The notes under the pieces were generated by a model. The model was not told where the DNA came from. It saw only the letters and a program-made list of their open reading frames with translations, and ran no database searches. From positions 64,784 to 128,783 of the forward strand of contig JANYHH010000077.1 of the NCBI GenBank assembly GCA_025359505.1: a stretch of DNA of 64,000 bases, written 5' to 3'. The stretch is from Deinococcales bacterium (GTDB taxonomy: Bacteria > Deinococcota > Deinococci > Deinococcales > JAAFIG01). Positions 28,647-47,683 of this stretch are shown here, in pieces. Both the position numbers and the translations under genes were made by a program. Each line of letters opens with the position of its first letter. The first letter of the stretch is position 1.

Positions 28647-28655
28647 CAAAACTTA

Positions 28656-28671
28656 CTAAAGTGTAGTTTAG
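28656..28671. promoter_or_regulatory. candidate operator in ROK / sugar-ABC divergent region
   Basis: The inverted repeat CTAAA-gtgtag-TTTAG lies in the AT-rich 130-nt divergent spacer. Confidence 0.3.
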
Positions 28672-28778
28672 AAATTTTCAATCAGCGGCCACCCTCGAGA
28701 CCCACACGCTCGAGGAATCGGCATTCAAACAGCAGCGCTTCAGCGCTGATGTTATCAGTTCCTCAAGGAGATATGCGT

Positions 28779-30083: not shown

Positions 30084-30102
30084 TGTAAACGCCTGTAGCG
30101 GC

Positions 30103-30139
30103 GGCTCGAGGTGTGAACATCTGTAAAGCTCCTCGAGCC
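30103..30139 (+). other. intercistronic hairpin after the SBP gene
   Basis: GGCTCGAGG-19 nt-CCTCGAGCC forms a 9-bp stem 20 nt after the stop codon. No U-tract. It may act as an mRNA stabiliser or attenuator. Confidence 0.35.
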
Positions 30140-30242
30140 ACCGAATGAATGCGCCCGTCAAAAGATTCAATCTCGAGCCGCTCCAGCTTTGAACAAGTCT
30201 CGAGCAAACCAAGCCCCATTCAGATGCGGCGGAGTCCACGAC

Positions 30243-30347
30243 TTACTGATAACGGCATGATTCGGTTCACTCACGCCTCCGACGGAAACGCACCAAATTG
30301 CGCTGTATCCTTAACCTGAAGTTACCGAACTCAGTAGCATGATTGAA
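30243..30347 (-). mobile_element. MITE-like / small noncoding repeat, copy 2 (inverted)
   Basis: It is the reverse complement of copy 1. It lies in the SBP-permease spacer and reaches the permease ATG. Confidence 0.6.
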
Positions 30348-31238
30348 TCTCGCGCACTCCTCCCCTCGAGCCGCCGCTTGCAACGCACCCGGTTGACGCC
30401 GTTCGCGTTCCTGATGCCCGCACTGGTGCTGTACGCACTGTTCACCGCGTACCCAGTTGCCCGCGCCTTCGTATTGAGCGTGCAACGCAACGTCGATGGC
30501 GAGGTGCGTTTCTCTGGACTGGCGCAGTACCAGCGCTTGCTGAGCGACGATGTTTTTCGGCAAGCGCTGTTCAACACGCTGATTTTTTTAGTCGCCCAAG
30601 TTCCCGTGATGCTGATCGCGGCGCTGCTGATCGCCGTGGCACTCAACTCGCCGCACTTCCCGTTTCGCAGCGCCCTTCGCAGCGCGTACTTCCTGCCGAG
30701 CATCATGAGCCTCGTCGCGGTTGGAACGCTGTTTCGGGTGCTGCTGAACGAGGATTTGGGTTTGGTGAATTACGTGCTGCGCGAATTTGGGCTGGCGGGC
30801 GTGCCGTGGATCACCCATCCGTGGTGGGCGAAAATCACCGTGATGCTGCTGTTGACGTGGCGCTACACCGGCTTCATGATGGTGATTTACTTGGCTGGAT
30901 TGCAAAATATCCCGCCTGAACTCTACGAAGCCGCTCAGATCGACGGAGCTGAGCCAGTGCAGTCTTTTTGGCACATCACCCTGCCGCTGCTGCGCCCGAC
31001 GATTCTGTTTACAACCGTGCTGTCGACCATTAGCGTGCTGCAAATCTTCGACGAAGCACTGATCGTCACGCGGGGCGGGCCCGCCAACGAAACCCTGACG
31101 ATCGGCTTGTACCTCTACCAGACGGTTTTCTCGAGCGTGGATTTCCACTATGCGGCTGCGATCTCGGTGGTGTTGGTCGTGGTGATTGGGGCGCTGGCGG
31201 TGCTGCAACTCAAAGCCGGCGAGCGAGGACAAACGTGA
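30339..31238 (+). CDS. carbohydrate ABC transporter permease (MalF/UgpA-like)
   Basis: Six TM segments. EAA loop: YEAAQIDGAEPVQSFWHITLPLLRP. Confidence 0.9.
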   Translation: MIESRALLPSSRRLQRTRLTPFAFLMPALVLYALFTAYPVARAFVLSVQRNVDGEVRFSGLAQYQRLLSDDVFRQALFNTLIFLVAQVPVMLIAALLIAVALNSPHFPFRSALRSAYFLPSIMSLVAVGTLFRVLLNEDLGLVNYVLREFGLAGVPWITHPWWAKITVMLLLTWRYTGFMMVIYLAGLQNIPPELYEAAQIDGAEPVQSFWHITLPLLRPTILFTTVLSTISVLQIFDEALIVTRGGPANETLTIGLYLYQTVFSSVDFHYAAAISVVLVVVIGALAVLQLKAGERGQT

Positions 31239-32077
31239 AGCGGCGCTGGTCATTCGCGCAAACGCTGGCATTGATCGTCGTGGCACTTGGAGCGCTGCTG
31301 GCGGTTTTTCCGTTCTACTGGATGTTCAGCGCCGCGACGCGACTCTCGAGCGAGGTGCTGGGCATCCCGCCGCGCTTAGACATCGGGAGTGCTCTGCTCA
31401 CCAACCTCGAGACGCTGGTCGGTAAGGGTTTCCTGCTGGCGGCTTGGAACTCAGCCTTCATCGCCCTGACCACGACTGCGTTGACGGTGCTGGTCTCGAG
31501 CATGGCGGGTTTCGCGTTCACGCAGTACCGCTTCGGCGCTCGGGAGCCGCTGTTCGCTTTCTTTTTGGTGACGTTGATCGTCCCGCCGCAGGTGACGATT
31601 GTGCCGCTGTTTCAACTGATGGCGGGGCAAAATCCGCTCGGGCTGAACCTGCTGGGCACGCCGTGGGCGATTATTTTGCCAGCGCTCAGCAACAGCTTCG
31701 CTATTTTTTTCTGCCGTCAAACCTTTCAGAAATACCCGCCAGAACTGAGCGACGCGGCTCGAGTCGATGGGGCGAACGAATGGCAGGTCTACTGGCAAGT
31801 TGCCATGCCCAGCGTCCGCTCGTCGCTGGCCGCGCTGAGCGTCTTCGTGTTTTTAGGGCAATGGAATAGCTTTTTCCTGCCGCTGATCATGAACGGCAAC
31901 AACGATGCTGGGCGCACTTTGCCGCTGGCGATCTCGGCATTGATCGGCGAGAACAGCGTCGATTACGGCGCGTTGATCGCGGGAACAGCACTGTCGGTGC
32001 TGCCGGTGCTGGTGTTTTTCCTGTTCGCACAACGCCTGTTCGTCAGCGGCGCGTTGTCGGGATCAGTCAAGGGTTAA
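31235..32077 (+). CDS. carbohydrate ABC transporter permease (MalG/UgpE-like)
   Basis: EAA loop SDAARVDGANEWQVYWQVAMPSVRS. There is a 4-nt overlap with the upstream permease. Confidence 0.9.
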   Translation: MKRRWSFAQTLALIVVALGALLAVFPFYWMFSAATRLSSEVLGIPPRLDIGSALLTNLETLVGKGFLLAAWNSAFIALTTTALTVLVSSMAGFAFTQYRFGAREPLFAFFLVTLIVPPQVTIVPLFQLMAGQNPLGLNLLGTPWAIILPALSNSFAIFFCRQTFQKYPPELSDAARVDGANEWQVYWQVAMPSVRSSLAALSVFVFLGQWNSFFLPLIMNGNNDAGRTLPLAISALIGENSVDYGALIAGTALSVLPVLVFFLFAQRLFVSGALSGSVKG

Positions 32078-32193
32078 AGGACGTATCAAGTCTCGAGAGC
32101 TTTGAACGCACAGTAAAGCACTTCGAGTCATCACTGGGCGCGACCCTCGAGAGTCAAGCAGCATCACCGATCTCACCGCTATAGAGGAGCGTT

Positions 32194-34344
32194 ATGACCA
32201 CCAACAACGATCAGTCGCCGTTGCCGCAATCCGACCTCGAGACTCGAGCGCTGGAGTTGCTGTCGCAGATGACGCTGAATGAAAAAATAGCGAATCTGTC
32301 TGGTTCCACGCCGTTCTGGTCTGGACTGGCGGATATCCTCGGTGGCGCTTACAACCGCCACACGTGGGACGCGGGGCATACGCAGCGCCTTGGGTTGGAC
32401 GGCATCCGCTTCACGGACGGCCCACGCGGCATCGTCATCGGACAGGCCACGACCTTTCCGGTCAGCATGGCCAGAGGCGCGACGTGGGACGTTGACTTGG
32501 AGCGCCGGATCGGGGAGGCGATGGGCAGGGAGGCTCGAGCGGTCGGGGCGAACCTGTTCGGTGGCGTGTGCATCAACTTGTTGCGTCACCCCGCTTGGGG
32601 ACGCGCTCAGGAAACCTACGGCGAGGACTCGCATCTGCTGGCAGAGTTTGGTGTGGCGCTCACAGTCGGGGCGCAGCATCACGTGATGGCGTGCGTCAAA
32701 CATTTCGCGCTCAACAATATGGAAAACGCTCGCTTCAGCATCGACGTGCAAGCCTCCTCTCGAGTGCTGCACGAGGTTTACCTGCCGCATTTCAAGCGGG
32801 TCGTCGACGCGGGCGTGGCTTGCGTGATGAGCGCCTACAACAGCGTCAACGGGCAATGGGCTGGGCACTCGAGTGAATTGCTGACCGAGATTCTCAAAAC
32901 CCGTTGGGGCTTTGGCGGTTTCGTCGTCACCGATTGGATTTTCGGGATGCGCGACTCACGGCTGGCTATGCTCGGCGGACAGGATCTCGAGATGCCGTTT
33001 CAAATGCACCACCACCGCGATTTGCAGCGGCTGGTCGAAGCGGGTGAAGTCTCAGTGGCTCGGATTGACGACGCGAACCTGCGGATGCTGCGAATGCAAC
33101 TGCATTTCACGCAATCTGACACCGTGGACGTGAGCGTGATGGGGTCATCGGCGCACCGGCAACTGGCGCTCGAGGCGGCGCAAAAGAGTATTGTGCTGCT
33201 GAAAAACGCGGGTGATCTGCTGCCGCTCCGCAGCGATACAAGGCTGGCGGTGATCGGAGCATTGGCGGCGATCCCCAACACGGGCGATGGCGGGTCATCC
33301 AATACCGTGTCTCAGCACATCGTCACGCCGCTCGAGGGCGTGCAGGCTGGGTTCACGCAGGTCACCTACGACGACGGTCAGGATCTCGAGCGAGCTAAAA
33401 TGCTGGCTCGCTCGAGCGAAGCTGTGCTGCTGGTCGTTGGCTACACCAAAGCCGACGAGGGCGAGTTCGTCTCGCCCGACACCACCAGCGGGCTGCGGAG
33501 TTTGTTTCCCGCCCCAACCTCGCCCACAGAGATTGAGATTGCTGGGCTTGTCGCCAGCGGACTGGCGGCTCGAGCCGAAGCCAGCGGTGCATTTTCACGC
33601 GGCGGTGATCGCGCCAGTTTGCATTTGAACTCCAGCGACGAAGCGTTGATTCAGGCCGTGGCGAGTGCCAACCAGAACGTCATCGTCGCCGTTATGGCCG
33701 GCAGCGCCGTGTTGATGAACGCTTGGGAGGACGCGGTGAGCGCGATTGTCTTGCTGTGGTATCCGGGCATGGAGGGCGGGCACGCACTGAGCGACGTATT
33801 GCTTGGGCGCGTCAACCCAAGCGGGAAACTGCCATTCAGCATCGCCAAAACCGACGCGCACTACCCATATTTCGACCGCGATGCGGTGAGTGTCACCTAC
33901 GACCTTTGGCACGGCTACCGCAAGCTGGAACGCGACGGGAACCCAGCCGCCTACCCGTTCGGCTTTGGATTGAGCTACACCACTTACGCCTACAGTGACT
34001 TGCGGCTCGAGCAGCAACAGAGCAGCGTGACGGCGACGGTGCGAGTGACGAACACGGGACGAAATGCGGGAGAGGAAATCGTTCAGCTTTACGTGTCCGC
34101 ACTGGATTCTGCGGTCGAGCGGCCCGTCAAGGAACTGAAAGCCTTCGCCAGAATCGCGTTGCAGCCTTTAGAGTCCAAACGTGTCTCGCTTAACGTGCTG
34201 ACCTCGAGCCTCGAGTATTTCGACGAGCTACTTGGTGAATTTATCTTAGAACCTAGGGAGTACGAATTTATTGTCGCTCAACATTCAGCGGACGCGAATG
34301 CGCTGCGCGGCAAAATCCGCTTAGGCGAACGCGGGGATACGTGA
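32194..34344 (+). CDS. glycoside hydrolase family 3 beta-glucosidase
   Basis: KHFALNNMEN, the GFVVTDW nucleophile region, and a C-terminal Fn3-like domain (VRVTNTGRNAGEEIVQLYV). Confidence 0.9.
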   Translation: MTTNNDQSPLPQSDLETRALELLSQMTLNEKIANLSGSTPFWSGLADILGGAYNRHTWDAGHTQRLGLDGIRFTDGPRGIVIGQATTFPVSMARGATWDVDLERRIGEAMGREARAVGANLFGGVCINLLRHPAWGRAQETYGEDSHLLAEFGVALTVGAQHHVMACVKHFALNNMENARFSIDVQASSRVLHEVYLPHFKRVVDAGVACVMSAYNSVNGQWAGHSSELLTEILKTRWGFGGFVVTDWIFGMRDSRLAMLGGQDLEMPFQMHHHRDLQRLVEAGEVSVARIDDANLRMLRMQLHFTQSDTVDVSVMGSSAHRQLALEAAQKSIVLLKNAGDLLPLRSDTRLAVIGALAAIPNTGDGGSSNTVSQHIVTPLEGVQAGFTQVTYDDGQDLERAKMLARSSEAVLLVVGYTKADEGEFVSPDTTSGLRSLFPAPTSPTEIEIAGLVASGLAARAEASGAFSRGGDRASLHLNSSDEALIQAVASANQNVIVAVMAGSAVLMNAWEDAVSAIVLLWYPGMEGGHALSDVLLGRVNPSGKLPFSIAKTDAHYPYFDRDAVSVTYDLWHGYRKLERDGNPAAYPFGFGLSYTTYAYSDLRLEQQQSSVTATVRVTNTGRNAGEEIVQLYVSALDSAVERPVKELKAFARIALQPLESKRVSLNVLTSSLEYFDELLGEFILEPREYEFIVAQHSADANALRGKIRLGERGDT

Positions 34345-35037: not shown

Positions 35038-37512
35038 TTACTTACCGGCCACGACGTTGATGCGTATCACCGTGTTCTCCTTGACGGACCCATCATCGTA
35101 AGGCACGGTGCGGTCGTAAGTTTTCTCGAACAGCACTTTGCTCGAGGCGCGGCTGCTGGTGCTCAGCACGAGTCCTACCTGCGGCGCACCGCCACCGGAC
35201 AGCAACTGCCCGCGCTCGGAAGTGTGAATACCAATGAAATCCCCGAACCAGCCGGGCGCGGTGACCCTGCGTCCGCACATCGGGCCGCCAGTCAGTTCGT
35301 AGGTTTCTTGTGGCGGCGCACCACCGCCACCGCTGGGGAAACCGGGGTTGAGCAGCATGTTCAGCGCATCCGACGTATCGTCATCGGCGCTGAGGTTGAC
35401 CTCCATCATGCCCGTGATGACATCGGTGATTTTTACAGTGCAGTCCTTAGACCCCCCGGTGATGCTGCGCTCCAAGTAGCTCAACCTGCCTGAGCCACCC
35501 ATGCTCGTCAAGCGCTCCAAATCCCCACTGCCGGAGAACTTGGCGGTTAACGCAAATTGCGCGCCCAGTTTGAAGTGCAGCTTCCCGCCACTTTTATCAA
35601 CGACATCAATGGTCGAAGTGAATTCCAGCTCGAGCTTTGGCGGAGCGAAGAAAATCACTGTCAAGAGTTCATCGGCGATGCCGGTTTTGTTGCCGCTGCG
35701 AACACCGGCTTCGATGGTGGACCACTTTTTGGGCATCAGGTTGCTGACGTCAACGCCGATGTTGCCGGTTTTAGCGTTTTCCTGCACCCGCAGCGCCTTC
35801 GGGATACGCTCAAACTTCGCATCGAACTTGGCCTTGGCAGTGCCCTGCGCGTCGGTGGTGTTCTGCACCAGTTTGAACTCCTCGTCCAGCGCGTATGGCA
35901 GCAGCGTGTTCGGCATGGTCCACTTCACGGCCTTACCCGCCGCATCGCCGGGATACGGGACTTCGCAACCGATTTTCTCCAATAACTGCGCGGCCGTGCC
36001 AATGTTGCCCGTCAAGCGCGTTCCGAAAACTTTGCTGCGGTAATCGTCCATGAAGCTGACGTGCACCGACAGCGAACTCGAGTACGGTTTGGAGCTGTCG
36101 CCTCGAGTGCGACGGTAGATCGTGGTTGGTGAGCGAGTCAGTTGAATCTGGTAGCCGTACAGAATCACCGAGGCGCAAAACGCGGCGCTGGCGTTTTCTT
36201 TTAAGGCCTGCACGATGGCGTCCTTAAGCGATTTGGGATCCACGCCTTCGGGGATTGGGAACGGAATCCCTAAATACTCCTGAATCGCGTCGTCAATCTG
36301 CGGGGTGATCTCACCCTTCACCTCATCTACAGCCTTGTCCGCGACTTTCTCGAAGAACCAGCGCAGCGGTTTAGGGGCATCGCCTTGTGCGCTGGCGCTC
36401 CAAATTGCGCCGTGCGAGGTTCCAACCCGCTCGAGTGAGGATAAGAGCGGCTCGAGGACGAAACGGCTGAGCGTCATCAGCGGCGCAGGGCTGGGCAGTG
36501 CTGCACTTAGCCGCAGTTGCGGGCTGGGCGGGCCCGCCTCGAAGAGCGCGGTCAGCAACCTAAACTGCATCGGATCGAGGGTTTTCTCGCCCCAGAACGC
36601 ATCGATATTCGCGCCGTCCCGTGAGCGCAACCCGCGCCGCAGGCGCTCGCGCCCGAGCGCCCCAACAAACGAGATGAGCGCCTGCGAGTACGTGAAATGC
36701 GGCTGCGCGAAGAAACCGCCAATCATCGCGGTGAAACTGAGCGCATCGAACGCCCCACCGGCTCGAGGCTTCAAACCGCTCTGCGACTCAGATTTCAGGA
36801 ACGATTCCAGTGATATGAACGAGCCTTTGTCGTAGCCCGCTCGCATCGCGGGGAATTCTAGGGTGAGCGCGAACGGGCGGTGCGCGAAGAGCCGCAGGCC
36901 AATTTGGTCGGTGTCGGCAATGCGGGCGTCGCCGTAAACGGGAATTTGAAAGCCCTCCAGCACGGCATTCAGCAACGGAGCAAAATCCTTTCCAGAAGTC
37001 ACGGCGTCGTAGAACTCCTTCGCGGCCCGCTCCAAATCTGCGCCCTCGAGACCGCTCGGCGCGAACCGGGTTGCTGCGGCTGGCGGCGCTGTGGGAGGGG
37101 CGCTATTGAGGGCGGGCGCGGCGCTAACACTGAGCGTCAACTCAGTGTCAGCGCCTGTGACCGTGCCCTGCAGTCCAAGTGCGGAGAGCGCCTCGAGCGC
37201 CGCGACGTAAATCGTGTTGCTGTTCGTCGTTGGGTCTTTGTGCAGCACGAAACTGACCGTGGCGGTCTTGCTGCCATCGCCGGAGGTGATCGTCACGAGC
37301 GCCTGCGTCTGATCGACCTTGACAGGCCGAGCGCCGCCCCCAATGGCTTGAAAGAACGGCAGCGCCGAAACCCAGAGCCTGCCGCCATCTGTGAAGCCGT
37401 CAACGCTGCCACTGCGGTTGTTTACAATGAGTTTCACGGGTTCGGCATGGGCAGTTGAACCCACGGCCACCCAAGTCAGCAGCGCGGCGAGGCAGACCAG
37501 CAATCGTTTCAT
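35038..37512 (-). CDS. large secreted orphan protein with N-terminal copper-amine-oxidase-N-like (stalk) module
   Basis: GGAGG RBS before ATG 37512 and signal peptide LTWVAVGSTAHA. The N-terminal roughly 100 aa resemble modules in three other operon members. The rest has no recognised domain. Confidence 0.6.
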   Translation of the reverse strand: MKRLLVCLAALLTWVAVGSTAHAEPVKLIVNNRSGSVDGFTDGGRLWVSALPFFQAIGGGARPVKVDQTQALVTITSGDGSKTATVSFVLHKDPTTNSNTIYVAALEALSALGLQGTVTGADTELTLSVSAAPALNSAPPTAPPAAATRFAPSGLEGADLERAAKEFYDAVTSGKDFAPLLNAVLEGFQIPVYGDARIADTDQIGLRLFAHRPFALTLEFPAMRAGYDKGSFISLESFLKSESQSGLKPRAGGAFDALSFTAMIGGFFAQPHFTYSQALISFVGALGRERLRRGLRSRDGANIDAFWGEKTLDPMQFRLLTALFEAGPPSPQLRLSAALPSPAPLMTLSRFVLEPLLSSLERVGTSHGAIWSASAQGDAPKPLRWFFEKVADKAVDEVKGEITPQIDDAIQEYLGIPFPIPEGVDPKSLKDAIVQALKENASAAFCASVILYGYQIQLTRSPTTIYRRTRGDSSKPYSSSLSVHVSFMDDYRSKVFGTRLTGNIGTAAQLLEKIGCEVPYPGDAAGKAVKWTMPNTLLPYALDEEFKLVQNTTDAQGTAKAKFDAKFERIPKALRVQENAKTGNIGVDVSNLMPKKWSTIEAGVRSGNKTGIADELLTVIFFAPPKLELEFTSTIDVVDKSGGKLHFKLGAQFALTAKFSGSGDLERLTSMGGSGRLSYLERSITGGSKDCTVKITDVITGMMEVNLSADDDTSDALNMLLNPGFPSGGGGAPPQETYELTGGPMCGRRVTAPGWFGDFIGIHTSERGQLLSGGGAPQVGLVLSTSSRASSKVLFEKTYDRTVPYDDGSVKENTVIRINVVAGK

Positions 37513-37565
37513 GAAGCCTCCAGTTTCAGTCAGACTGTACCTCTCAGGTCTCACTGATACCGTCA

Positions 37566-38879
37566 TCACGGAACCGTCAGCAGCAAAATCGTGCTCACTC
37601 CGGTCGGGCAGCCGTCGGCATTCACGTCCACCGTGTACGTGCCTGACGAAACGCCTGAGCCGACCGCCAGATTCAGCAGGCTCGAGTTACCAACTGTACT
37701 GTTGGGCGCGAACGAACCCGAGACCGTGCCGCTCGAGGCTGCGCCAACTGGGGCGGGCCCGGCGCTGCCAACGGTCGAGCTACCGGAGATGCTCAAGTTC
37801 AGGGCGGCCGCGCAATTCGCGCCGCGCTCGAACTCGAGGGCGACTGTCTGGCTCGCGCCTTTGGCGATGGAAACCGGGTTTGGAACGCCCTGCGTTGAAA
37901 AAAGAATGTTCAGACCATCCGGATTAAGCGTCGCGGTGCTCAGAAAAATGCCCTCCGCACCGTAGCTGAGGTTCGCGCCAAATCTGGTTCTGACGCGCAC
38001 GTCGTAACTCGTGCTTGGGTTTGCGGGGACGGTTGCCGTCGTCGCTGTCGTGTCAATCGCTGGGCCGTACTGACCAACGCCGTTCCCCAGATCCAGTCCG
38101 GCGGAGCGTATTTGCAGGCTGTAACCCGTGGCCTCGGGGACGGCGTCCCATTTTAGCAGCAGCTTCTTGGCGGTGTCAGACCTGACTTGCGCGATATTGG
38201 CGGTTTCTGGTAGCACGAGAAAGAATTTCTGGTCGCTCGAGACCGCGCCCGAAGTGAAGGTTTCGACGATGGGCGTGGTGGCGCTTAAATCGTGCCCGGC
38301 GAGGCTGATGTTGAGGATGTTCCAGCCCTGAACGAAGGACACGTTGTCGTAGGTGTAGGTGTATTTCGGCGTTCCCGTCGTGGTGGTGCAGGAGCCGCTC
38401 AGGATCGTATTTTTCGTTACAAAAATGCGGTACGTGCCATTGCTACCGGGGTCGAACGCCGAGCTGCTAGATTCGACAGCGTTCGCCTGATACACGTCGC
38501 TTCCCGAGTTGGGTTTCGTCGTGAGCAGCGCGAAGACGGCCTTGCCATCGCTCGGGGTCGCGGTGATGCTCCCGCCGCTGCACGATCCCAGCAGGTTGCC
38601 GCCACCGTTCAGCTCCGCATCGGTCGGCGTGGGCAACACGAGGTTACTGAACGAGCCATCCGCCGCAACGGTTACACCCACGCTTGTCGATGGGGTGCTC
38701 GAGAAAACCTGCGCGTAGAGGGTTGCGGTTTTCCCCGGAATCCAATTCGAGATCGTGCCGAAGACAGGCGAACCGTTCGCCACTGGGGACTGCGGAGGCG
38801 CGACCGTTCCGCTCGAGTTGCAAGCGACCAACAACGAGACGAAGCCGGGAACAACGAGTAAAATCTGCCAACGTTTCAT
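37566..38879 (-). CDS. lipoprotein with Fn3/Ig-like domains
   Basis: Lipobox LLVAC. KLLLKWDAVPEATGYSLQIRS is an Fn3-like segment. The protein is Thr/Ser/Gly-rich and beta-rich. Confidence 0.6.
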   Translation of the reverse strand: MKRWQILLVVPGFVSLLVACNSSGTVAPPQSPVANGSPVFGTISNWIPGKTATLYAQVFSSTPSTSVGVTVAADGSFSNLVLPTPTDAELNGGGNLLGSCSGGSITATPSDGKAVFALLTTKPNSGSDVYQANAVESSSSAFDPGSNGTYRIFVTKNTILSGSCTTTTGTPKYTYTYDNVSFVQGWNILNISLAGHDLSATTPIVETFTSGAVSSDQKFFLVLPETANIAQVRSDTAKKLLLKWDAVPEATGYSLQIRSAGLDLGNGVGQYGPAIDTTATTATVPANPSTSYDVRVRTRFGANLSYGAEGIFLSTATLNPDGLNILFSTQGVPNPVSIAKGASQTVALEFERGANCAAALNLSISGSSTVGSAGPAPVGAASSGTVSGSFAPNSTVGNSSLLNLAVGSGVSSGTYTVDVNADGCPTGVSTILLLTVP

Positions 38880-38951
38880 AAATCACTCCTTGACCGCCCT
38901 TGGGAAGCTCGAGCGGCGGTATTGCGTGTGGTGCGACCCGAGTCAGCGCTG

Positions 38952-39068
38952 GCTCGAGCAGGTGAGGGCAAAAAGATTCGGTCGTCTCGAGCTGGGAAAA
39001 AGCCGATCACTGCCACGCGGCGGTCAACGCAATGTGCTTCAAAATCCGCTCGAGCACAGGTGAGGGCA
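38952..39068. promoter_or_regulatory. two direct repeats GCTCGAGCA(CA)GGTGAGGGCA, 96 nt apart, in an internal operon gap
   Basis: Copies at 38952-38970 and 39048-39068. They lie 73-190 nt upstream of the 38879 start codon on the minus strand. Confidence 0.35.
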
Positions 39069-39177
39069 CATCAGCATTGGCCCGCATGGTGCAGCGTTGC
39101 GACCCTCGAGCCATCGTGGTGTAGAACTTTTGCGAGTATCACGCGGTATGCGAGCCGGGCGATGTTGTCCTCGAGCA

Positions 39178-40122
39178 TCACTTGGCTGGAATCGGCGCGA
39201 TGTTGCCGATGAAATCCACAGACTCAGCATTTGGGACTTTCAGGGTGATCGGTTTCTCGCTGGTTTTAGTGGCGATCAGGCGCACGCTGGACTGCCCGCC
39301 CGCCACGACTGCCGCGATGATCCCTCGACCGTCCGGCGTCCACGCAGCGGTTGGCCTGACGAAATTGCTCGAGTCGGTTTTGAGATCGCTCAGGGCGCGG
39401 TCGCTCGTGCCATCTGGTTTAACGGTGTGCAGCACGCCTTTGTAGAGGTCACTGGCGTTGGTGCGTAAGAAAACAATAGCTTTGCCGTCGGGCGACCACG
39501 CGGGCCACGCATCGCCCGTCAATGTCCCGGCAATTTGCTTGGCATTGCCGCCGCTCGCGTCCATGATCCACAATCCACCAGCGGCGAAATTGGCGTTGTG
39601 AAACACGATCTGACCCGTCACGGGATTGACGTTTGGCGCGTCGTCAAAGCAGTTGGCATCGCGCAAAGTAGTTACGCTCGAGCCTTCTAGGGTCACGCGC
39701 CCGAGGCTGCACTGCTCATCGAAAATCAGCGCTTGGCTATCAATCGTCCAACCGGCGGAGACCATGTAATCGCTGCCGTTCATCACGTTCTGTTCGCTGG
39801 ATGTCTCGAGGTTTCGCACAAACAGGTGGTCGCCCTTGCCAGATGGATATTCGCCGTCGCGCTGGAACGAAAACGCTTTCCCGTTTGGCGCGAGATGCGG
39901 ATTCCAGCCGATCGCCACGACTTGATTTGAACTGCCATCGAGTTTCAGTAGATGCACGAAATGCGAGCCGTCGGCTGGATCAGTGCTGCTGTACACCAGT
40001 TGGCTCGAGGCGATGGAGTCGATTGGCGTGGTCGGCGTGCTGGCGGGATCGCCAGTGACGACGACGATGCAGCCGGAGAGCGCAACCGCCAGCGCGGGAA
40101 TCAGCAGGAGTTTGGTTTTCAT
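39178..40122 (-). CDS. TolB-like beta-propeller lipoprotein (PD40 repeats)
   Basis: Lipobox ALSGC. Repeated W-x-P-D/N-G-K/R motifs: WNPHLAPNGKAFSF, WSPDGKAIVF, WTPDGRGII. Confidence 0.75.
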   Translation of the reverse strand: MKTKLLLIPALAVALSGCIVVVTGDPASTPTTPIDSIASSQLVYSSTDPADGSHFVHLLKLDGSSNQVVAIGWNPHLAPNGKAFSFQRDGEYPSGKGDHLFVRNLETSSEQNVMNGSDYMVSAGWTIDSQALIFDEQCSLGRVTLEGSSVTTLRDANCFDDAPNVNPVTGQIVFHNANFAAGGLWIMDASGGNAKQIAGTLTGDAWPAWSPDGKAIVFLRTNASDLYKGVLHTVKPDGTSDRALSDLKTDSSNFVRPTAAWTPDGRGIIAAVVAGGQSSVRLIATKTSEKPITLKVPNAESVDFIGNIAPIPAK

Positions 40123-40180
40123 GGGTGTGTCCTTTCAAAACTCGAGGGATCTCAGGTGAAATGCAAAAGTGATGCGGGCG

Positions 40181-41041
40181 CTACGGCTGCCCAATCAGTT
40201 CGTAACTGAGCGTCGCACCGAAGTACTGGCTCGAGGCGGACAGGTGTTGACTCGAGGCGGTGGTCAGTCCCAAGCCGTCTGCGGTGGGATCGCTGTGCAG
40301 CAGTAGTTGCAAGCCACCCGCGCCATCAGTACCGTCTGGGCAGACGATGCCGTCAATCGCCAATGCGTAGCGGCTGGGCGAAGTGAAATTGATGATGCCC
40401 GCGAACGGCGTCTGCGCGGTGATGTCTGAACCGATCAGGTATTTGGTTTGCGTACACGCGACATTGAACGGCGCTGGGATGACATCGAGCGTGACCGCGC
40501 CACTGACCGTGCGGTACGAACCTTGACCGCCTTCTTTGAAGACGACTTGCCCGTGACCCTCGAAGCCAGCTTTATTTTGAAACTTGAAGCTGCCCGAATA
40601 CGATTTCATAGCGCGGCTCGAGCGAGGCACAGGCGGAGTGGCGGGCGGCGGGGTCGGCTCGACGTTCTGGGCTGCGGCGGGTGCAGTGCTGGGTAAATCG
40701 GCAATCGTCACCGAATTGCTCGAGGCTCGCAGGATCACGAAACCCAGTCCAGTCACCAGATCGCTCAAACTCGCGTACAGCTTGCCCTTTAAGCCGGTCA
40801 ACGCCAGCCGCACGCTGCGGCTGCGGTGCGCGAACAGAGCTTTCTTGCCACCGGATTCCACGGTGACTTTGCTGGCGCTGCCAGCGGCAAAGCCTTGCAC
40901 CTCGAGCATCAGTTGGTTGTTCACGGACGCACCCAGCACGGACTTTGAAGCGCCAGCGTAGTTCAGGGTGAACGGCGTTTGAGCGCTGGCCATAGTCAGC
41001 AATGTAATAGCGACCATCAACAACCAGATCGTAGGTTTCAT
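40181..41041 (-). CDS. secreted orphan protein with N-terminal stalk-like module
   Basis: Signal peptide LLTMASAQ, shared N-module, Pro-rich linker PTPPPATPPVP, and an unrecognised C-domain. Confidence 0.55.
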   Translation of the reverse strand: MKPTIWLLMVAITLLTMASAQTPFTLNYAGASKSVLGASVNNQLMLEVQGFAAGSASKVTVESGGKKALFAHRSRSVRLALTGLKGKLYASLSDLVTGLGFVILRASSNSVTIADLPSTAPAAAQNVEPTPPPATPPVPRSSRAMKSYSGSFKFQNKAGFEGHGQVVFKEGGQGSYRTVSGAVTLDVIPAPFNVACTQTKYLIGSDITAQTPFAGIINFTSPSRYALAIDGIVCPDGTDGAGGLQLLLHSDPTADGLGLTTASSQHLSASSQYFGATLSYELIGQP

Positions 41042-41126
41042 GCAGCCTCCTCGAGCGCTATGGGCGAGATTTGACTAACTCGAGGGTCTAGCTCGAGCGG
41101 GATTGAACGGTGCGGGATTCGAGTCT

Positions 41127-42110
41127 TTACTTGATTGGCTCGAGTTTCAGGCGCGTGTCTTGGATCAGGGTCGCCTTGCCAATTTTTAGCGGCGCGTTGT
41201 TACCGACGCTGTACTCAACGGTAGCGCTTGGGGTGAGTTCCGGCAAACCGTTCAACAACAGCGCCGGACGCGGCGAGTCTTGGGATACGATCACCACGCC
41301 GAGGTTGCCCTTGACCGAATTGGTGAACGCCGAGTACCAGCCCTGCAACCCAAGTGCGCGTGGACACTGCACGGTTTCGCTCGGGGCGAGTCCGCGACCG
41401 CCCGGCAGGCCGGGGTCAAATGCGATCACGCGCAGCTTGCCGCCCTTTGGGAGCGTCGTCTCCAGCAGCATCAGGTACGCAAAGCCATTGCGTCCGACGA
41501 TGGGGCACTTTGGCGGACTGAGGGTGACGCTCTCGTAACTCAAGTCCAGCCTGCCCTCCGCGAGAATCGTGAACGGCGCACCCACGGGCAGGTCACTGCC
41601 TTGCAGGTACGTCTCCCCCGCTCGAGCCTCGCTCAACACCGCGTGACCCTCGAGCCGGTACGTGTAGTACGTGTAGCCGCTCCCACCGTCTTTGAGAGAC
41701 ATCGTGGAGGTGAAGGTCGCGTTGTACCCGATGCCGGGCGGCGCGGTCGGGTTCGCCGGGGCGCAGTTGCCCGCGTCACCGGTCACGGTCAGGGTCGTGC
41801 CGCTAGCGCTGACCTGAAACCCGAGTGCTCGAGCGCTCAGCACGCCGTCCATGAACGGCGTGGCGTCGCGCACCTCGAAGGCTAAGTCCGTGGTCTTGCC
41901 GCAGAGCTTGACCGATGCCTTGTTCGGGGACAGTCGCACCACACTCGCGCCGAGGGCGGGCAGGAAGGTTCGGGCAGAAACAAAAATCGTGTTGCCTGCC
42001 GCGAATCCGGGCATCGTACTGGCTGTGCCGTTCACGACAACCGCCACCGAACCCGCCGCCAGTCCCAGCCCGAGCGCCAGCGCCAGCGCCGCGCCAAGCA
42101 TTGATTTCAC
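41127..42110 (-). CDS. secreted orphan protein with N-terminal stalk-like module
   Basis: GTG 42110 overlaps the upstream stop (GTGA). Signal-like ALALALGLGLAAG. The N-module is VVVNGTASTMPGF...FLPALGASV. The 497-aa ORF's N-terminal 169 aa were rejected as Arg-rich and overlapping the upstream gene. Confidence 0.55.
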   Translation of the reverse strand: MKSMLGAALALALGLGLAAGSVAVVVNGTASTMPGFAAGNTIFVSARTFLPALGASVVRLSPNKASVKLCGKTTDLAFEVRDATPFMDGVLSARALGFQVSASGTTLTVTGDAGNCAPANPTAPPGIGYNATFTSTMSLKDGGSGYTYYTYRLEGHAVLSEARAGETYLQGSDLPVGAPFTILAEGRLDLSYESVTLSPPKCPIVGRNGFAYLMLLETTLPKGGKLRVIAFDPGLPGGRGLAPSETVQCPRALGLQGWYSAFTNSVKGNLGVVIVSQDSPRPALLLNGLPELTPSATVEYSVGNNAPLKIGKATLIQDTRLKLEPIK

Positions 42111-42541
42111 TTGAACCTCGCGCTCGAGGCGATCTGACGCAGCGACTGCTCCAAGGGAGCGGTGTTTTTCAGGTCGGTGTTGGAGCGCACGATGCAGCCC
42201 CGTGCGCCTTGAAAGATCGCCTCGTAGTATTCCCGCGTGGCGAAGGCCGCCAGTTCCTCGGTGATTGTGATTCGGTAAAGCACGTGGTGCGCGTCTTGCT
42301 CCAAGGTTTGCTTTTTGAAACTGGCGGTGGCCGTCGTGATGTCCGCTGGCGTGTACGCGCCGCTGATCGCACTGGCTCGAGCGTGACCGCCCGGTTGCAC
42401 GGCGAACGTACCGCTCTTTTTCCAGTTTTGCGGAAACGTAAAAGCGCAAACGCCGCGCTTGTCGGTCATGGTTTGCGAGTCGTTTGGAGCCGCGAGTGCG
42501 AGGCTCGAGATCAGTACGAAGGGCAAAAGTTTCAGCTTCAC
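42107..42541 (-). CDS. small secreted orphan protein
   Basis: 144 aa with signal peptide FVLISSLALAAP. No known domain. Confidence 0.5.
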   Translation of the reverse strand: MKLKLLPFVLISSLALAAPNDSQTMTDKRGVCAFTFPQNWKKSGTFAVQPGGHARASAISGAYTPADITTATASFKKQTLEQDAHHVLYRITITEELAAFATREYYEAIFQGARGCIVRSNTDLKNTAPLEQSLRQIASSARFK

Positions 42542-42673
42542 AGGGATCTCCTGACCGAGTTGCCAACGAAGTCCATCCAGTCGGCATGGGCAAGGTTGAG
42601 GGTGATGATCTCGCTCGCACTGCTCGTGAGCGCAGGGCGAAGGCTCGAGAGTAGAGCAGGCAATCCAGCGCGG

Positions 42674-43984
42674 TCAGTTCAGGTTGCTGATGTCCAACTC
42701 GGCTGTTCTCGAGCCTTGCCAGACCAACCTGACCTTCTTGGGTTGCACGCCGCTGGGGACATCAATCAGCGCCCGCACCTGCACTTCTTGATTGTACTGC
42801 AAATCAATCGACTCGAGGTTCGCGTCGCGGCTTGCGCGGTAGATCCAGTCCGATTTGCGGCTCTCAATGCGGTCTTGGTCGATGAAGGAAATTGCACCGT
42901 AACCGCCGTAAATGCCCGTGGGTGCTTTGGCGATGTTCTTGACGGTGAAATACAGCACCAGCCAGCGTCCACCCTCGGGCGGGGCTGAACCGTCGAACCA
43001 TGGCTCGGTGGAGTAGATCACCTTGTCGAGCCTAAAATTGGTGACCGCCGGGTAGTAAACGCCGATCTGCGCTGGAAATACTGTCAGGGCACTCGAGCCG
43101 TCGGTCACAGTCGGGTCAGCGAACGGCGTAGGCAGCGGCGCGATTTTGCCGCGCAAGTCGTAGCGCCAGACCGCGTTGTTGCTGTCGTCCACGATCAACT
43201 TGGGCAAGCTGACATCGCCGTCCACGACGATGCGCGTGAAAACAACGACCTTCTGCGCGGGTTTGAGGCTGAGGCTGACGGGTCGCAGTGTGCCCTGTTC
43301 GTACCAGTAACCGTCACCAGACACGTTGCTGTTCTTACTGTCCACGCCGGTAAACCGAATGCTCGAGCCGTCGACAGAGCGTTCGGTCTTGTTGGGGTTC
43401 TGGATCGTCAGCGAGATCACCAGCGCTTTTTTGTCGGGCGCGACGATGTAATCGTTTTTGCTCGGGCTGTCGTAGAGGTAATTGCCGACGCTCCACTCGA
43501 GCTTGGTGATGGAATAGTTCAGTGCGCCTTCGCCGCGAAACAGCGTGTAGGTCTGACCCAGCACGCCCTCGCCGCCGCTCAGTTGACTCGCGCCCTGAAC
43601 GCTCGGGGCCGTCATTGGCATCGCTGGCGTGGGGTTGGTGATCGTCACCGTCGTTCCAGCGAGGCTCGAGGCCAGCCCGAGACCTTTGACGACCACCGCG
43701 ACACTTGCGTAGGCGATGTCTTTTTGGATCGTCACCGCGACCTTGGCGGTCTTGGCGTTGCGCGTGAAAGTCGCGGCTTTACCGGCGAAGTCGAGGCTGA
43801 CGCTCGCGCCGAGCGCGGCCGCCAAGGGCTTGCTCGAGAGTGCGAGCTTGCCAGTGACGGTGATGCCTGCCACGCTGCTGCTTTTACTACCGAAGACGAC
43901 TTTGTACGTGCCTTGCGCGAGCGCGATGGCCGCCGCGAGCGTGAGGGCGAAAACAAGTGTACCGCCGAGTTTTTTCGCGTTCAT
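42674..43984 (-). CDS. secreted protein: stalk-like N-module plus two DUF4352-like beta-sandwich regions
   Basis: Signal peptide ALTLAAAIALAQG. N-module ITVTGKLALSSKPLAAALGASVSL. Then KKALVISLTIQNPNKTERSV and RWLVLYFTVKNIAKAP, which resemble the DUF4352 core strand. Confidence 0.55.
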   Translation of the reverse strand: MNAKKLGGTLVFALTLAAAIALAQGTYKVVFGSKSSSVAGITVTGKLALSSKPLAAALGASVSLDFAGKAATFTRNAKTAKVAVTIQKDIAYASVAVVVKGLGLASSLAGTTVTITNPTPAMPMTAPSVQGASQLSGGEGVLGQTYTLFRGEGALNYSITKLEWSVGNYLYDSPSKNDYIVAPDKKALVISLTIQNPNKTERSVDGSSIRFTGVDSKNSNVSGDGYWYEQGTLRPVSLSLKPAQKVVVFTRIVVDGDVSLPKLIVDDSNNAVWRYDLRGKIAPLPTPFADPTVTDGSSALTVFPAQIGVYYPAVTNFRLDKVIYSTEPWFDGSAPPEGGRWLVLYFTVKNIAKAPTGIYGGYGAISFIDQDRIESRKSDWIYRASRDANLESIDLQYNQEVQVRALIDVPSGVQPKKVRLVWQGSRTAELDISNLN

Positions 43985-44285: not shown

Positions 44286-46244
44286 TCAATTGGTTGAAGA
44301 CCCCAGCAGCTCGAGTACCGCAGCGCGGGTCAGGTCGAGCGGCTCGAGGGTCTCGAGCAAGGCGTGGGCTTTGTCCCGCTGCGCTGCCGCCTCGATTGCC
44401 AAGTCGTTTGGCGCGTGATGGACGGCGATCGCCAGTGCGCTGATCTCCAAGCCGCCCATGCCGAGTTCAGCGGCCGCAGCGGCGACCATGAGCGCCAAGC
44501 GGTAGCCGCCCGGCGAGGCGCTCTTTGTCGCCCGCAACAGGTGCGCTCGCAGCAGGTACGATCCCGGGCCGCTTTGCTCCAGTGAACGCTCGGCTTGGGT
44601 CAGCGTCGCGTCCCAATCCGCGCCGCGCTGAGCGCAGATTCGGGCGCTCAGCAGTTGCGCGAAGCCGACGCCCTTGGCGTGAACGCCCGCGCTGGCAAGC
44701 GCCCGCTCGAGGTCGCGCTCAGCGTCGTCGGGGCGGTTGAGCAGCAGGTACACCTGAGCGCGGCGATAAAAAACGAAACTGCACGGCAGATTGTTCGTCA
44801 CGCTCAGGCTCTCAGCCCGTGCCAGCCACTCGAGGGCTTCTTCAAAGCGCCCAAGCTGAGTCAGCACCTCGGCGCGATTGGCGTAACCGTAGCGTTCGTC
44901 ATCGACGAGTCCCGGCAACTGGCTCAGCAGCCGCGCAGCGATCTCGAGCGGCTCGAGGGCGGCTTGGGCGCGGCCCTGATGTTTATAGGTCATGGCGAGG
45001 TTGTTGAGCAGCGTGATGCGTTGCCGCCACGCGCCAAACAGTTCCAGCAGCGCGTCTGCTTCCAGATACGCGGCTTCGGCCTCACTGTAACGGTCAGAGT
45101 TGGCCAGCGACAGCGCGTACTCCGCCAGCGCGACGGCCGCCTCGAGCGAGTGGTGCGGCAGGGATTGCACGGCCCGCTGCTGCCACCCGAGCGCCTCGGA
45201 CGTGCGGTCAAGCCGCAGCAGTGCGGCCGCGATTTCAGCCTCGAGCTGCGAGCGCAAACCCGCATCGCCCGTCAGCTCCAATCCGCGCTCGGCGTGCCTT
45301 TGGGTTTCCGCGAACTGTCCACGCTGGTAATGCAACCACGCGCTAGCCAGCGCGGTTTTGGCGTGCTGCTCAGGCGTCTGCGCTCGGCTGGATAAGTCAA
45401 CAATCAGCCGCTCCAATGCGTCGGTGGCTTCGATTTCAGACAGCACCGCGCTGGCGGCCAGCAGCGTATCGAAGGCGGTCTCCGTGCGCCCGAGCGAATC
45501 CAGCACGCGGGTCGCCTCGAGCAGCGCGGCCACTTCGCGGTTGGAGTCGGATGAGCGTTGCGGCAAGCTGGCGGGCACGTGACCAACGCTCGGTAGGCGC
45601 ACGCCGCGAGCGACCAGCAAGGCGAGGCGCTGCGTTTCCAAGCTCGGCTCGAGGTTCAGTTCTCTTCTGAGCACGTCGCGGCAGGCTTCAAAGGCTCGTA
45701 CGGCCGCGGCGCGATCACCGAGCGCTTCGTGCAGGCGCATCACGCGGCGGTGATTGGCTTCGCTCAACGCCTCCAGCGCCACGAGTTGCTTGGCATAATG
45801 AAGCGCCGCGCCGTAGTCGTGCGCGGTTTCAAAAGCCGCACAGCGCTTGGCGTACCCCTCGAGTTGCCTGAGGGCTAAACGTTGGCGTTCGGTGAACAGC
45901 CAATCGTCAAAGGTTGGGCAGTCATCGTAGCTGAAGTTTCCAAGCAGCTCACCAGCGCCAGCTCCTGACTCATTGGACAAATGCAAATCAACCCGCACGT
46001 CAGCCGCAAGGCAAAGCTGATCATGGCCGACCAACAAACCCTTGGGGAGCTTAAAAACCACTTGCCGCAGGCTGTTGCGGGCCGCGCTTGCATCCGACCA
46101 CAGCCACGACGCCAGTTTAGCGCGGGCCTGCTGCCCCTCGAGCGCCAGCAATGCCAGCACAGCGGCCGTTTTACGATCCAGCAACGTGCGTTGCTGACCA
46201 TCGTACAGCGACGGCTGACCCCGCAGTTGCAGCTCGAGCGGCAC
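44286..46244 (-). CDS. SARP/AfsR-like regulator: winged-helix plus BTAD domain plus TPR repeats
   Basis: The N-terminus (LELQLRGQPSLYDG...RKTAAVLALLALEG...LASWLW) is OmpR/SARP-like. The BTAD segment is ALHYAKQLVALEALSEANHRRVMRLHEALGDRAAAVRAFEACRDVLRRELNLEPSLETQ. A long TPR-like helical region follows. Confidence 0.8.
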   Translation of the reverse strand: MPLELQLRGQPSLYDGQQRTLLDRKTAAVLALLALEGQQARAKLASWLWSDASAARNSLRQVVFKLPKGLLVGHDQLCLAADVRVDLHLSNESGAGAGELLGNFSYDDCPTFDDWLFTERQRLALRQLEGYAKRCAAFETAHDYGAALHYAKQLVALEALSEANHRRVMRLHEALGDRAAAVRAFEACRDVLRRELNLEPSLETQRLALLVARGVRLPSVGHVPASLPQRSSDSNREVAALLEATRVLDSLGRTETAFDTLLAASAVLSEIEATDALERLIVDLSSRAQTPEQHAKTALASAWLHYQRGQFAETQRHAERGLELTGDAGLRSQLEAEIAAALLRLDRTSEALGWQQRAVQSLPHHSLEAAVALAEYALSLANSDRYSEAEAAYLEADALLELFGAWRQRITLLNNLAMTYKHQGRAQAALEPLEIAARLLSQLPGLVDDERYGYANRAEVLTQLGRFEEALEWLARAESLSVTNNLPCSFVFYRRAQVYLLLNRPDDAERDLERALASAGVHAKGVGFAQLLSARICAQRGADWDATLTQAERSLEQSGPGSYLLRAHLLRATKSASPGGYRLALMVAAAAAELGMGGLEISALAIAVHHAPNDLAIEAAAQRDKAHALLETLEPLDLTRAAVLELLGSSTN

Positions 46245-46492
46245 GGGTTTCAGTCTACGTTGCCCCGCAGTGCTGACGCGGTGGAATTCAAACAGATTCG
46301 TGCTGGACTGGCTTTCAGGGTGACAGATTCAGGCGGTGGTCGGTGGCACAAACGATTGGCTGTCGCGTGTCAAGGGATTTTGACCATCAAAAGCATGACT
46401 CGTCTCGTAAGCTCACCAAAGGTTCATTTCACCTTCACCGCAACCCACAACTCTTGCTCAGCTCTTTCGCACACAAACCACGAAGGGAATCC

Positions 46493-47683
46493 ATGCTGAA
46501 CAACGCTTACTCCGTGGCCATCACGGCTCCACCCGCCGGCGACCTCACTCCATTCGTCGATGCACTGGCGCAAACACTGAACGCCCAAAACCCGCAAATC
46601 GTGCAGTTGCTCGAGCGCTTGCAGGCCGGGCCCGTGACCGTCACCAAACCGATTCCGGAGGACGCAGCGCGGCAGCTCGCGCAGCAACTCGAGCGGCTTG
46701 GCTTCAAAACGCAGGTGCGCGTCAGCGCCCAGCCAGCGCCGTCCACCAGCCAAGCACTGCCCCTCAGCAGCGATCTCGTCGCGCCGCCCGCGCCGCCAGC
46801 CCGCAAGCGCTCGAGCCTCAGCAACCGCATTTTGCTCAGCACATTGATCCCGCTGTTGGTGCTGATCGCGGCGATCCTCGGGTTCACCGCACTGAGCTTG
46901 CCGAGCACGGTCAGGCAACTGATTCTCGAGGGCGCGGATCAACTGGCCATCGCGGTTGGCAACTCAATCGAACTGAACAATCCGGGGGGTGAGAACCGCC
47001 GCTTGACGTTGCTGACCCAACAACCCAAGGTCTTTTTCGTGGCGGTCAAACTGCCCGATGGCTCAGCGCTGTTTCGCGCCAAAAACGCCGATGACGAGAT
47101 CATCGTTCGCACGCCACTGACTGAATTCATGGACGCCAATCCAGCGGGCGGCACGTACTCGTGGACGGACAACCGCGCTGCCGCCTTTGCGACGGTCATC
47201 AAGCAGATGCAGTCCTCAGGGCAAGCGACGGACGCATCTGTCAAATCAGTGCAGCAAAACGTTGATCGCACCGTGTCGTCGGCTGGGCAAGTGACGATTC
47301 TCGAGGTCAGGCGCATTGGCTTTAAAGAAATTGGCGGCGTGCGCCAAGTCGTGCCGATCAATCAAGCGGACTTCGTGGTCAGCGTTGGCGTGATCGCCAA
47401 TGACAGCTTGAGTATTCGCAATAACTTCCTACTGATCTTCGGTGTGGTCGCGCTGCTGGCGACCGTCGTGATCGTTGCCATCACCTCGGCCGCACTGCGC
47501 CGCGTGGTGCAACCGATTTTGGAGATGTCAAAAATCGCGGATCGCATCAGCATGGGTGAAATTGATCAACCCGTACCGAACTTTGGCAACGACGAATTGG
47601 GTGATCTGTCTCAGTCGATTGATCGCCTGCGAATCAGCGTCAAGGTGCTGTTAGAAAGGATGGTCAGCAAACGCAATTCTTAG
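46493..47683 (+). CDS. membrane sensor ending in a HAMP domain, with no output domain
   Basis: Soluble N-domain, TM1 (ILLSTLIPLLVLIAAILGF), a roughly 200-aa extracytoplasmic region, TM2, HAMP (RRVVQPILEMSKIADRISMGEIDQPVP...DELGDLSQSIDRLRISV), then the stop codon. Confidence 0.7.
   Translation: MLNNAYSVAITAPPAGDLTPFVDALAQTLNAQNPQIVQLLERLQAGPVTVTKPIPEDAARQLAQQLERLGFKTQVRVSAQPAPSTSQALPLSSDLVAPPAPPARKRSSLSNRILLSTLIPLLVLIAAILGFTALSLPSTVRQLILEGADQLAIAVGNSIELNNPGGENRRLTLLTQQPKVFFVAVKLPDGSALFRAKNADDEIIVRTPLTEFMDANPAGGTYSWTDNRAAAFATVIKQMQSSGQATDASVKSVQQNVDRTVSSAGQVTILEVRRIGFKEIGGVRQVVPINQADFVVSVGVIANDSLSIRNNFLLIFGVVALLATVVIVAITSAALRRVVQPILEMSKIADRISMGEIDQPVPNFGNDELGDLSQSIDRLRISVKVLLERMVSKRNS

Follow-up and report, generated by a model that had tools for sequence, protein, structure and literature searches.

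We analyzed a stretch of 64,000 nucleotides from the genome of an uncultured Deinococcales bacterium (GenBank assembly GCA_025359505.1, contig JANYHH010000077.1, positions 64,784 to 128,783; hereafter, the window) and found that four secreted proteins encoded in one gene cluster, designated G1, G2, G3, and G4, carry paralogous modules of 91-107 amino acid residues (aa) directly after their signal peptides. This module represents, in a compact and divergent form, the Pfam domain PF07833 (Cu_amine_oxidN1), or 'stalk' domain, and it appears to be built of two beta-beta-alpha-beta-beta half units with pseudo-twofold symmetry. Among exported bacterial proteins, PF07833 is very widespread, but its function is obscure. 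The sharing of the module is genuine, although as an example of domain re-use it is rather ordinary: a family that is known and re-used in many contexts is represented here by a divergent member, in a new lineage and a new arrangement. The findings on the cluster do not overturn the current understanding; they place in a diderm lineage a divergent PF07833 subfamily that is missed by Pfam.

The paralogy of the four N-terminal regions had been proposed in a first-pass annotation of the window, and it was confirmed by two kinds of comparison. The peptide segments and linkers quoted in that annotation are all present in the genes to which it had assigned them. The module pairs were compared by the Smith-Waterman method with mature sequences, from which the signal peptides had been removed, and with 1000 composition-preserving shuffles. 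Four of the six pairs were significant (G1-G2, z = 8.5; G1-G3, z = 12.3; G1-G4, z = 10.6; G2-G4, z = 9.6), and 0 of the 1000 shuffles reached each score. The G2-G3 and G3-G4 pairs were not significant alone in this comparison; thus, G3 is tied to the other proteins via G1 only. As a strict test, hidden Markov models (HMMs) were built from the orthologs of other genomes alone, without any window sequence, and the 940 six-frame open reading frames (ORFs) of the window were used as the target. The HMM of the G1 orthologs matched G3 (E = 7e-9), G2 (E = 2e-6), and G4 (E = 2.5e-4), that of the G4 family matched G2 (E = 1.5e-9) and G1 (E = 1.2e-7), and that of the G2 family matched G1 (E = 1.4e-5) and G4 (E = 1.2e-3). 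All these matches are full-length. No other window ORF was matched at E<=1, and no fifth copy of the module was found in the window. When the G2 and G4 families were aligned with each other over the N-terminus, hhalign gave 98.4% with an E-value of 1e-14.

The sequence identity of the modules is 38-85% between orthologs and 24-30% between paralogs; therefore, the module duplications are old. In the G4 family, the identity across orthologs is 38-47% in the module versus 24-37% in the heads, and in the G2 family it is 54-55% versus 42-43%. As conservation in the module equals or exceeds that in the heads, the comparison of orthologs argues for a functional rather than a vestigial module. In two further proteins, P0080 (133 aa) and P0081 (123 aa), the whole chain is made up of a signal peptide, a stalk module of the G2 type, and a short tail that contains Cys. 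Both could be modules that stand alone, or their genes may have been called too short.

The first-pass annotation had also likened the module to the N-terminal 'stalk' of copper amine oxidase (CAO), and profile alignment, library searches, and a predicted structure all bear this out. In the comparison with PF07833, the gathering threshold of which is 24.2 bits, the isolated G1 module scored 21.1 bits (E = 3.2e-4) and the G2 module 15.2 bits (E = 0.021), both in register. At E<=10, seven of nine module sequences matched the family (best E, 7.6e-5), and precomputed PF07833 matches are present on several G1 homologs. A search of 1.84 billion representative sequences with the module profile gave 23 proteins only. 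The distant ones among them are genuine PF07833 proteins (up to E = 4e-78), in which the match falls exactly on the PF07833 domains; the architectures retrieved included PF07833 combined with a subtilase domain (P0086) and tandem PF07833 (P0087 and P0089). When the module alignment (A2) was compared with the Pfam-delimited PF07833 domains (A8), hhalign gave 97.4% with an E-value of 1.2e-11 (columns 7-87 of 93 versus 2-102 of 107), with the caveat that the A8 proteins were first retrieved with the module profile itself. In this alignment, the module is about 18 residues short in its second half. The A8 domains, in turn, matched the N-terminal domain of the Escherichia coli amine oxidase (E = 1.8e-8) and the Cys-less Cu/Zn-superoxide dismutase of Paenibacillus lautus (PaSOD-1, PDB 8IMD; E = 6.5e-4). 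The first half of the module shows weak similarity to the second (hhalign 62%, E = 7.5e-5), and the predicted secondary structure repeats. In the search of PDB sequences with the module profile, the best matches were beta-clamps at E = 0.12, which we took as chance, and PDB sequence searches with G1, the G4 family, and the lipoprotein G6 gave nothing useful. The NCBIfam and PADLOC searches gave no match for any module protein.

The AlphaFold (AF2) model of the G1 module has a predicted local distance difference test (pLDDT) score of 95 and shows the fold of CAO domain D1, namely, a beta-sheet on two helices with pseudo-twofold symmetry. In a Foldseek search of the PDB, the consistent matches of the module, apart from a Synechocystis protein described below, were E. 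coli amine oxidase chains (1OAC, domain D1), with a root-mean-square deviation (rmsd) of 2.3-2.5 Å over 67-73 columns and a probability of ~0.9. The G4 model, which was built independently, contains a module with the same order of strands and helices, and among the viral models of BFVD it is matched best by two phage proteins that bear the name 'Copper amine oxidase' (E = 3e-4 and 7.5e-4). The mean pLDDT of the G4 model is 57.6; the C-terminal half is at 70-90, and residues 150-445 are weak. The search of the PDB with this model gave high-rmsd noise only. In structure, the G1 module is matched best by PDB 5h3k, a hypothetical protein of Synechocystis (535 aa), with a TMq of 0.64 over all 93 columns and a probability of 1.00. 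Sequence searches with PF07833-type profiles did not detect this protein, and no paper was found in a literature search on the PDB entry 5H3K; it may contain an unrecognized stalk-like domain.

The module and D1 of the E. coli enzyme, which is the type structure of PF07833, thus have a fold in common, and their homology is detectable. Both PF07833 and the window module appear to have two half units, each of which terminates with an 'ALG'-motif helix and then a beta-hairpin, and both stand at the N-terminus of secreted proteins that lack the amine oxidase catalytic domain. The window module differs in its length (93 aa versus 108 model positions) and in its sub-threshold score. Its subfamily, with the 23 representatives mentioned above, is very rare, and its host is a diderm member of the Deinococcales and not of the Firmicutes.

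Behind every module we found a linker of 18-28 aa with a Pro, Ala, Thr, and Ser content of 50-80%, as the first-pass annotation had described for its Pro/Ala-rich linkers. The linker of G4 (residues 120-153) has a pLDDT of <50 in the model. The further claim that the C-terminal domains are unrelated holds for G1, with two DUF4352-like domains, and for G3, with an orphan head, which are distinct. It does not hold for G2 and G4. The G2 head can be aligned over its whole length with the last ~190 aa of G4 (Smith-Waterman z = 7.3; hhalign 96%, E = 4.4e-9, 179 columns), and G2 and G4 are therefore paralogs at both ends. A MAFFT alignment of G2 with the G4 family was not used, as the G2 head was misplaced in it.

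The G1 head consists of two tandem, mutually homologous domains of ~150 aa (hhalign 99%, E = 4.5e-18). In the comparison with PF11611 (DUF4352), the window copy scored 21.9 bits versus the cut-off of 25.9 bits, and P0090 and P0083 scored 41.3 and 25.6 bits, respectively. Many of the 72 homologs of G1 have precomputed matches to PF11611, and some have those to PF07833. Judging from these profile matches, both domains of the G1 head are DUF4352-like. Three head regions without a family or fold match are flagged here: the domain shared by G2 and G4; the middle region of G4 (~475 aa), which is poorly predicted; and the head of G3, a protein for which the Pfam, NCBIfam, and PADLOC searches gave no match. 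G2 is identical to P0077 and to a 327-aa gene product of the public contig L008. In the case of G4, four homologs were found in a word-indexed search of 5.8 billion sequences, and P0082, P0084, and the partial P0085 were found in the representative library. G3 is identical to P0078, and its sole other homolog among the 5.8 billion sequences is P0097 (80% identity). A short 'YL.GSD....PF' likeness between the G3 head and the G2 and G4 heads was considered and rejected, as it was not significant (Smith-Waterman z = 2.5; hhalign 1.8%).

With moderate confidence, we propose the following as the best explanation of the whole. The PF07833-type modules with their linkers and heads would go back to ancient duplications and to domain shuffling at this locus, and the module would be a protein-protein association domain, acting either in self-association or between the products of the cluster. 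Co-regulated periplasmic or envelope proteins would be held together by their modules, with the linkers allowing the heads to move, and the G1 relatives with half a module would dimerize and thereby rebuild the full fold. We consider the association role the most likely one by analogy, because the PF07833-type domain of PaSOD is the only experimental handle that we found. This N-terminal domain is necessary for homodimerization, and the dimer mimics the two-helix arrangement of the CAO N-terminal domain; the domain also raises the melting temperature (Tm) of the enzyme by 12.5 degrees C (PMC10432803). Like the window proteins, PaSOD is a secreted protein in which an N-terminal PF07833-type domain precedes an unrelated head, and its half-size domain resembles the half-module form of the G1 relatives. 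PaSOD differs in that its domain is one half-type unit, and the pairing occurs between subunits, whereas the window proteins hold both halves in each chain. The heads are also unrelated, and the dimer is known experimentally for PaSOD but would be putative for the window proteins. The common anchoring or docking module of the first-pass annotation is plausible and is favored indirectly, by the conservation of the module relative to the heads and by the PaSOD precedent. A more specific form of the proposal, which we regard as doubtful, is a lineage-specific hetero-oligomeric envelope complex, in which G1, G2 or G4, and optionally G3 would be bundled via their stalk modules, tethered by G6 or the TolB-like lipoprotein, and controlled by a SARP-like regulator. 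PF07833 would then be a heterotypic assembly domain, and the heads would be new folds with a new envelope function.

Several observations weigh against the best explanation. The gathering threshold of PF07833 was missed by all four window modules, G3 and G4 had no Pfam match at E<=1, and the Foldseek E-values of the G1 module to 1OAC were 0.5-1.3. Among the four paralogous modules, only G15, L77, and G78 are invariant; these residues look structural, and no conserved binding surface is evident. The charge of the modules is not uniform either, with isoelectric points (pI) of 10.2, 9.2, 10.2, and 5.1, the last being that of the acidic G4 module. As the full-length module is already an intramolecular 'dimer', further oligomerization is not required. 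G1 orthologs also stand alone, without the cluster, in L011 and L006/L007. The few invariant columns, the varied charge, and these lone G1 genes speak against a common docking surface. Finally, a scan of the cluster for consensus promoters and terminators was at chance level and gave no support for co-transcription. Because of this result and because an Rfam search of the cluster found nothing, we infer the putative operon from the gene arrangement.

Among the other explanations, the most serious is that the module is a cell-wall or envelope anchor, which would bind peptidoglycan, the S-layer, or an outer-membrane component and thereby tether the heads; the first-pass annotation had suggested anchoring of this kind. 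We consider this unlikely, although three of the four modules are strongly basic (pI 9.2-10.2) and the module proteins have no other anchor, while G6 and the TolB-like protein, which lack the module, are lipoproteins. The acidic G4 module does not fit such a role, G1 relatives function without any module, and no experimental demonstration of peptidoglycan binding by PF07833 was found in the literature. Moreover, the Deinococcales are diderm; therefore, Sec-exported proteins would stay in the periplasm without an anchor. It is rather improbable, in our estimate, that the module has no shared partner and is a generic folding, stability, or spacer domain, which spread by serial duplication and head replacement in proteins that act independently. 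The duplication history is evident from the likeness of G2 and G4 at both ends, the PaSOD domain is stabilizing, the paralogs have no conserved surface, and G1 is alone in some genomes. All this would agree with a spacer, but the module has been kept, with a conservation equal to or higher than that of the heads, in three separate gene families, and every regulated locus examined encodes at least two module proteins.

Constant N-termini with linkers and variable C-termini, together with the variable gene content in relatives, give the cluster a superficial likeness to polymorphic toxin loci, in which a constant trafficking domain precedes variable effectors with small immunity neighbors. A variant of this idea is a DUF4352-based anti-phage system, as DUF4352 has been implicated in the Mpr phage resistance of mycobacteria (PMC12596739). 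We regard an effector or toxin cluster, including this variant, as very unlikely. No toxin, immunity, or defense family was found in Pfam, NCBIfam, or PADLOC, no dedicated secretion system is nearby, and the surroundings are housekeeping genes. The heads are conserved between orthologs and are not swapped at a fixed junction. Sec or lipoprotein signals are present on all members, including the small G7, and there is therefore no cytoplasmic immunity protein. In the case of Mpr itself, a DUF4352-type domain is the common element with the G1 head, which is DUF4352-like, but Mpr is a membrane nuclease, whereas G1 is a soluble Sec-exported protein with a sub-threshold DUF4352 score and no PADLOC match; we treat the G1-Mpr link as a lead only. 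That the resemblance among the modules arose by chance or composition has practically no probability. The secreted proteins compared are rich in Ala, Gly, Ser, Thr, and Val, and the G2-G3 and G3-G4 pairs are not significant, but this explanation is refuted by the z-scores of 8.5-12.3 against composition-preserving shuffles and by the ortholog HMMs, which match these ORFs alone; in addition, a common fold is predicted with confidence.

Two other known systems invite comparison with the association domain proposed here. PF07833 is frequent in cell-wall hydrolases and is combined with many functional domains in exported proteins, as described in a surfaceome paper (PMC4137172). The Firmicutes proteins with PF07833 repeats, such as surface proteins of Desulfotomaculum reducens and cell-wall hydrolases, are similar to the window proteins in joining PF07833 to varied domains in exported proteins. 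The window proteins differ from them in having one copy each, always at the mature N-terminus, in being encoded by several adjacent paralogous genes, and in having heads without a known family. The cohesin-dockerin system of the cellulosome is a works-like analogy only, in that a small common module with a Pro/Thr linker presents diverse heads. There is no sequence or fold relationship between the two, and no scaffoldin-like partner was identified for the window proteins.

The coordinates of the cluster, which consists of eight co-directional genes in the order regulator-G1-G7-G2-G3-TolB-like-G6-G4, are listed in Table 1.

Table 1. Genes and domains of the module-bearing cluster, with positions in the window
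Feature	Position	Strand	Description
BTAD + TPR (SARP-like) regulator	44286..46244	-	Directly upstream of G1
G1	42674..43984	-	436 aa; signal peptide, stalk module, short linker, two tandem DUF4352-like domains
G1 stalk module	43631..43909	-	Residues 26-118
G7	42107..42541	-	144 aa; small secreted protein without module
G2	41127..42110	-	327 aa, GTG start; signal peptide, stalk module, linker, ~200-aa head
G2 stalk module	41775..42047	-	
G2 head	41130..41726	-	Homologous to the G4 C-terminal domain
G3	40181..41041	-	286 aa; signal peptide, stalk module, long Pro-rich linker, orphan ~140-aa head
G3 stalk module	40694..40978	-	
TolB-like beta-propeller lipoprotein	39178..40122	-	Lipobox LSGC; without module
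G6 lipoprotein	37566..38879	-	Lipobox LVAC; without module
G4	35038..37512	-	824 aa; signal peptide, stalk module, linker, ~475-aa region, G2-like C-terminal domain
G4 stalk module	37123..37443	-	107 aa; two small insertions
G4 C-terminal domain	35041..35622	-	Residues ~631-824; homologous to the G2 head

The starts of two genes had to be corrected. The longest ORF of G2 (497 aa, to 42620) is over-extended across all of G7 in another frame, and the true start is the GTG at 42110; that of G4 (843 aa, to 37569) is also over-extended, and the true start is the ATG at 37512. Both corrected starts match the orthologs and an independent gene call. Over 9.6 kb, the public contig L008 matches the window with 100% identity; on this contig, an independent gene caller gave products of 144, 327, 286, 314, 437, and 824 aa. 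The signal peptides of G1, G2, G3, G4, and G7, as read from the sequence, are of the Sec type. The intergenic gaps in the cluster are 132, -4, 85, 58, 298, and 53 nucleotides (nt). The stop of G7 overlaps the start codon of G2, and this overlap suggests that the two genes may be translationally coupled. In the largest gap (38880-39177, 298 nt), between the TolB-like gene and G6, a 35-aa ORF was called on L008 (4136-4243). In this gap, neither an Rfam family nor a promoter or terminator signal is conspicuous, but the gap could be the site of an internal promoter.

The regulator passed the threshold of Pfam BTAD (PF03704; 45.5 bits versus the cut-off of 22.1 bits) and also contains TPR families. 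The Pfam and NCBIfam searches gave no family match for G7, and G6 contains a weak fn3-like stretch only (Pfam fn3, E = 0.076). The TolB-like protein matched PD40 at 35.3 bits. The possibility that it is TolB itself was rejected, as it scored 44.5 bits against TIGR02800 versus the cut-off of 343 bits, with the propeller part only (model positions 157-404); moreover, the protein is a lipoprotein, and no tol-pal genes were found near its gene.

The nearest genomes to the window are metagenome-assembled genomes of uncultured Deinococcales. The gene order in these relatives is regulator-G1-G7-G2-G6 in L001, regulator-G1-G4-G6 in L002, regulator-G1-G2-G6 in L003, regulator-G1-TolB-like (710 aa)-G4 in L010, and G1-G3-TolB-like in the contig fragment L009. 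An orthologous regulator precedes G1 in L001, L002, L003, and L010. The set that recurs in the relatives thus consists of the BTAD/TPR regulator, G1, one of G2 and G4, and at least one lipoprotein (G6 and/or TolB-like), and the window cluster is its largest version. The G7 ortholog of L001 is 81% identical and has the same position between G1 and G2. The G6 orthologs of L001-L003 are 56-61% identical, and G6 is absent from L010, which weakens the candidacy of G6 as a universal partner. The first-pass annotation had suggested the TolB-like protein as a partner of the module. This suggestion failed: L001-L003 still carry module proteins but lack the TolB-like protein, which is therefore not a general module partner.

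On L009 (1-3139), G3 and the TolB-like gene directly follow G1, with 80% and 87% identity, respectively, to the window (39178-41041). Both genes are absent from L001-L003, and they seem to be gained or lost as a pair. The TolB-like protein of L010 (11408-13540, 710 aa) has a propeller that is 45% identical to that of the window, followed by a Pro/Ser/Thr linker and an extra C-terminal region with faint BNR matches.

Distant relatives of G1 in Deinococcus, Armatimonadota, and Abditibacteriaceae contain the first half of the module only, or no module. In G1 relatives, the module can therefore be complete, halved, or absent, and the cluster and these relatives together provide a compact natural test of PF07833 as an association module. 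A distant analog of the cluster is found on L005 (361-10541). It encodes a regulator with BTAD and AAA_16 (973 aa), three lipoproteins of 301, 573, and 629 aa, the G1-like protein P0022 with a half module, and a further lipoprotein of 442 aa; the stalk sequence is present in P0022 alone.

The cluster is surrounded by housekeeping genes, namely, those for a sugar ABC transporter, a GH3 enzyme, a HAMP-domain protein, and a Bmp-type binding protein. The gene at 46343-47683, which is divergent from that of the BTAD/TPR regulator, encodes a 446-aa protein with the HAMP domain at its C-terminus. The genes at 28749-34344 on the plus strand, convergent with G4, encode the sugar ABC transporter (a solute-binding protein and two permeases) and the GH3 glycosidase, and a ROK-family gene is located at 27522-28649. 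The genes from 27522 to 34344 look like ordinary carbohydrate uptake genes that are unrelated to the cluster.

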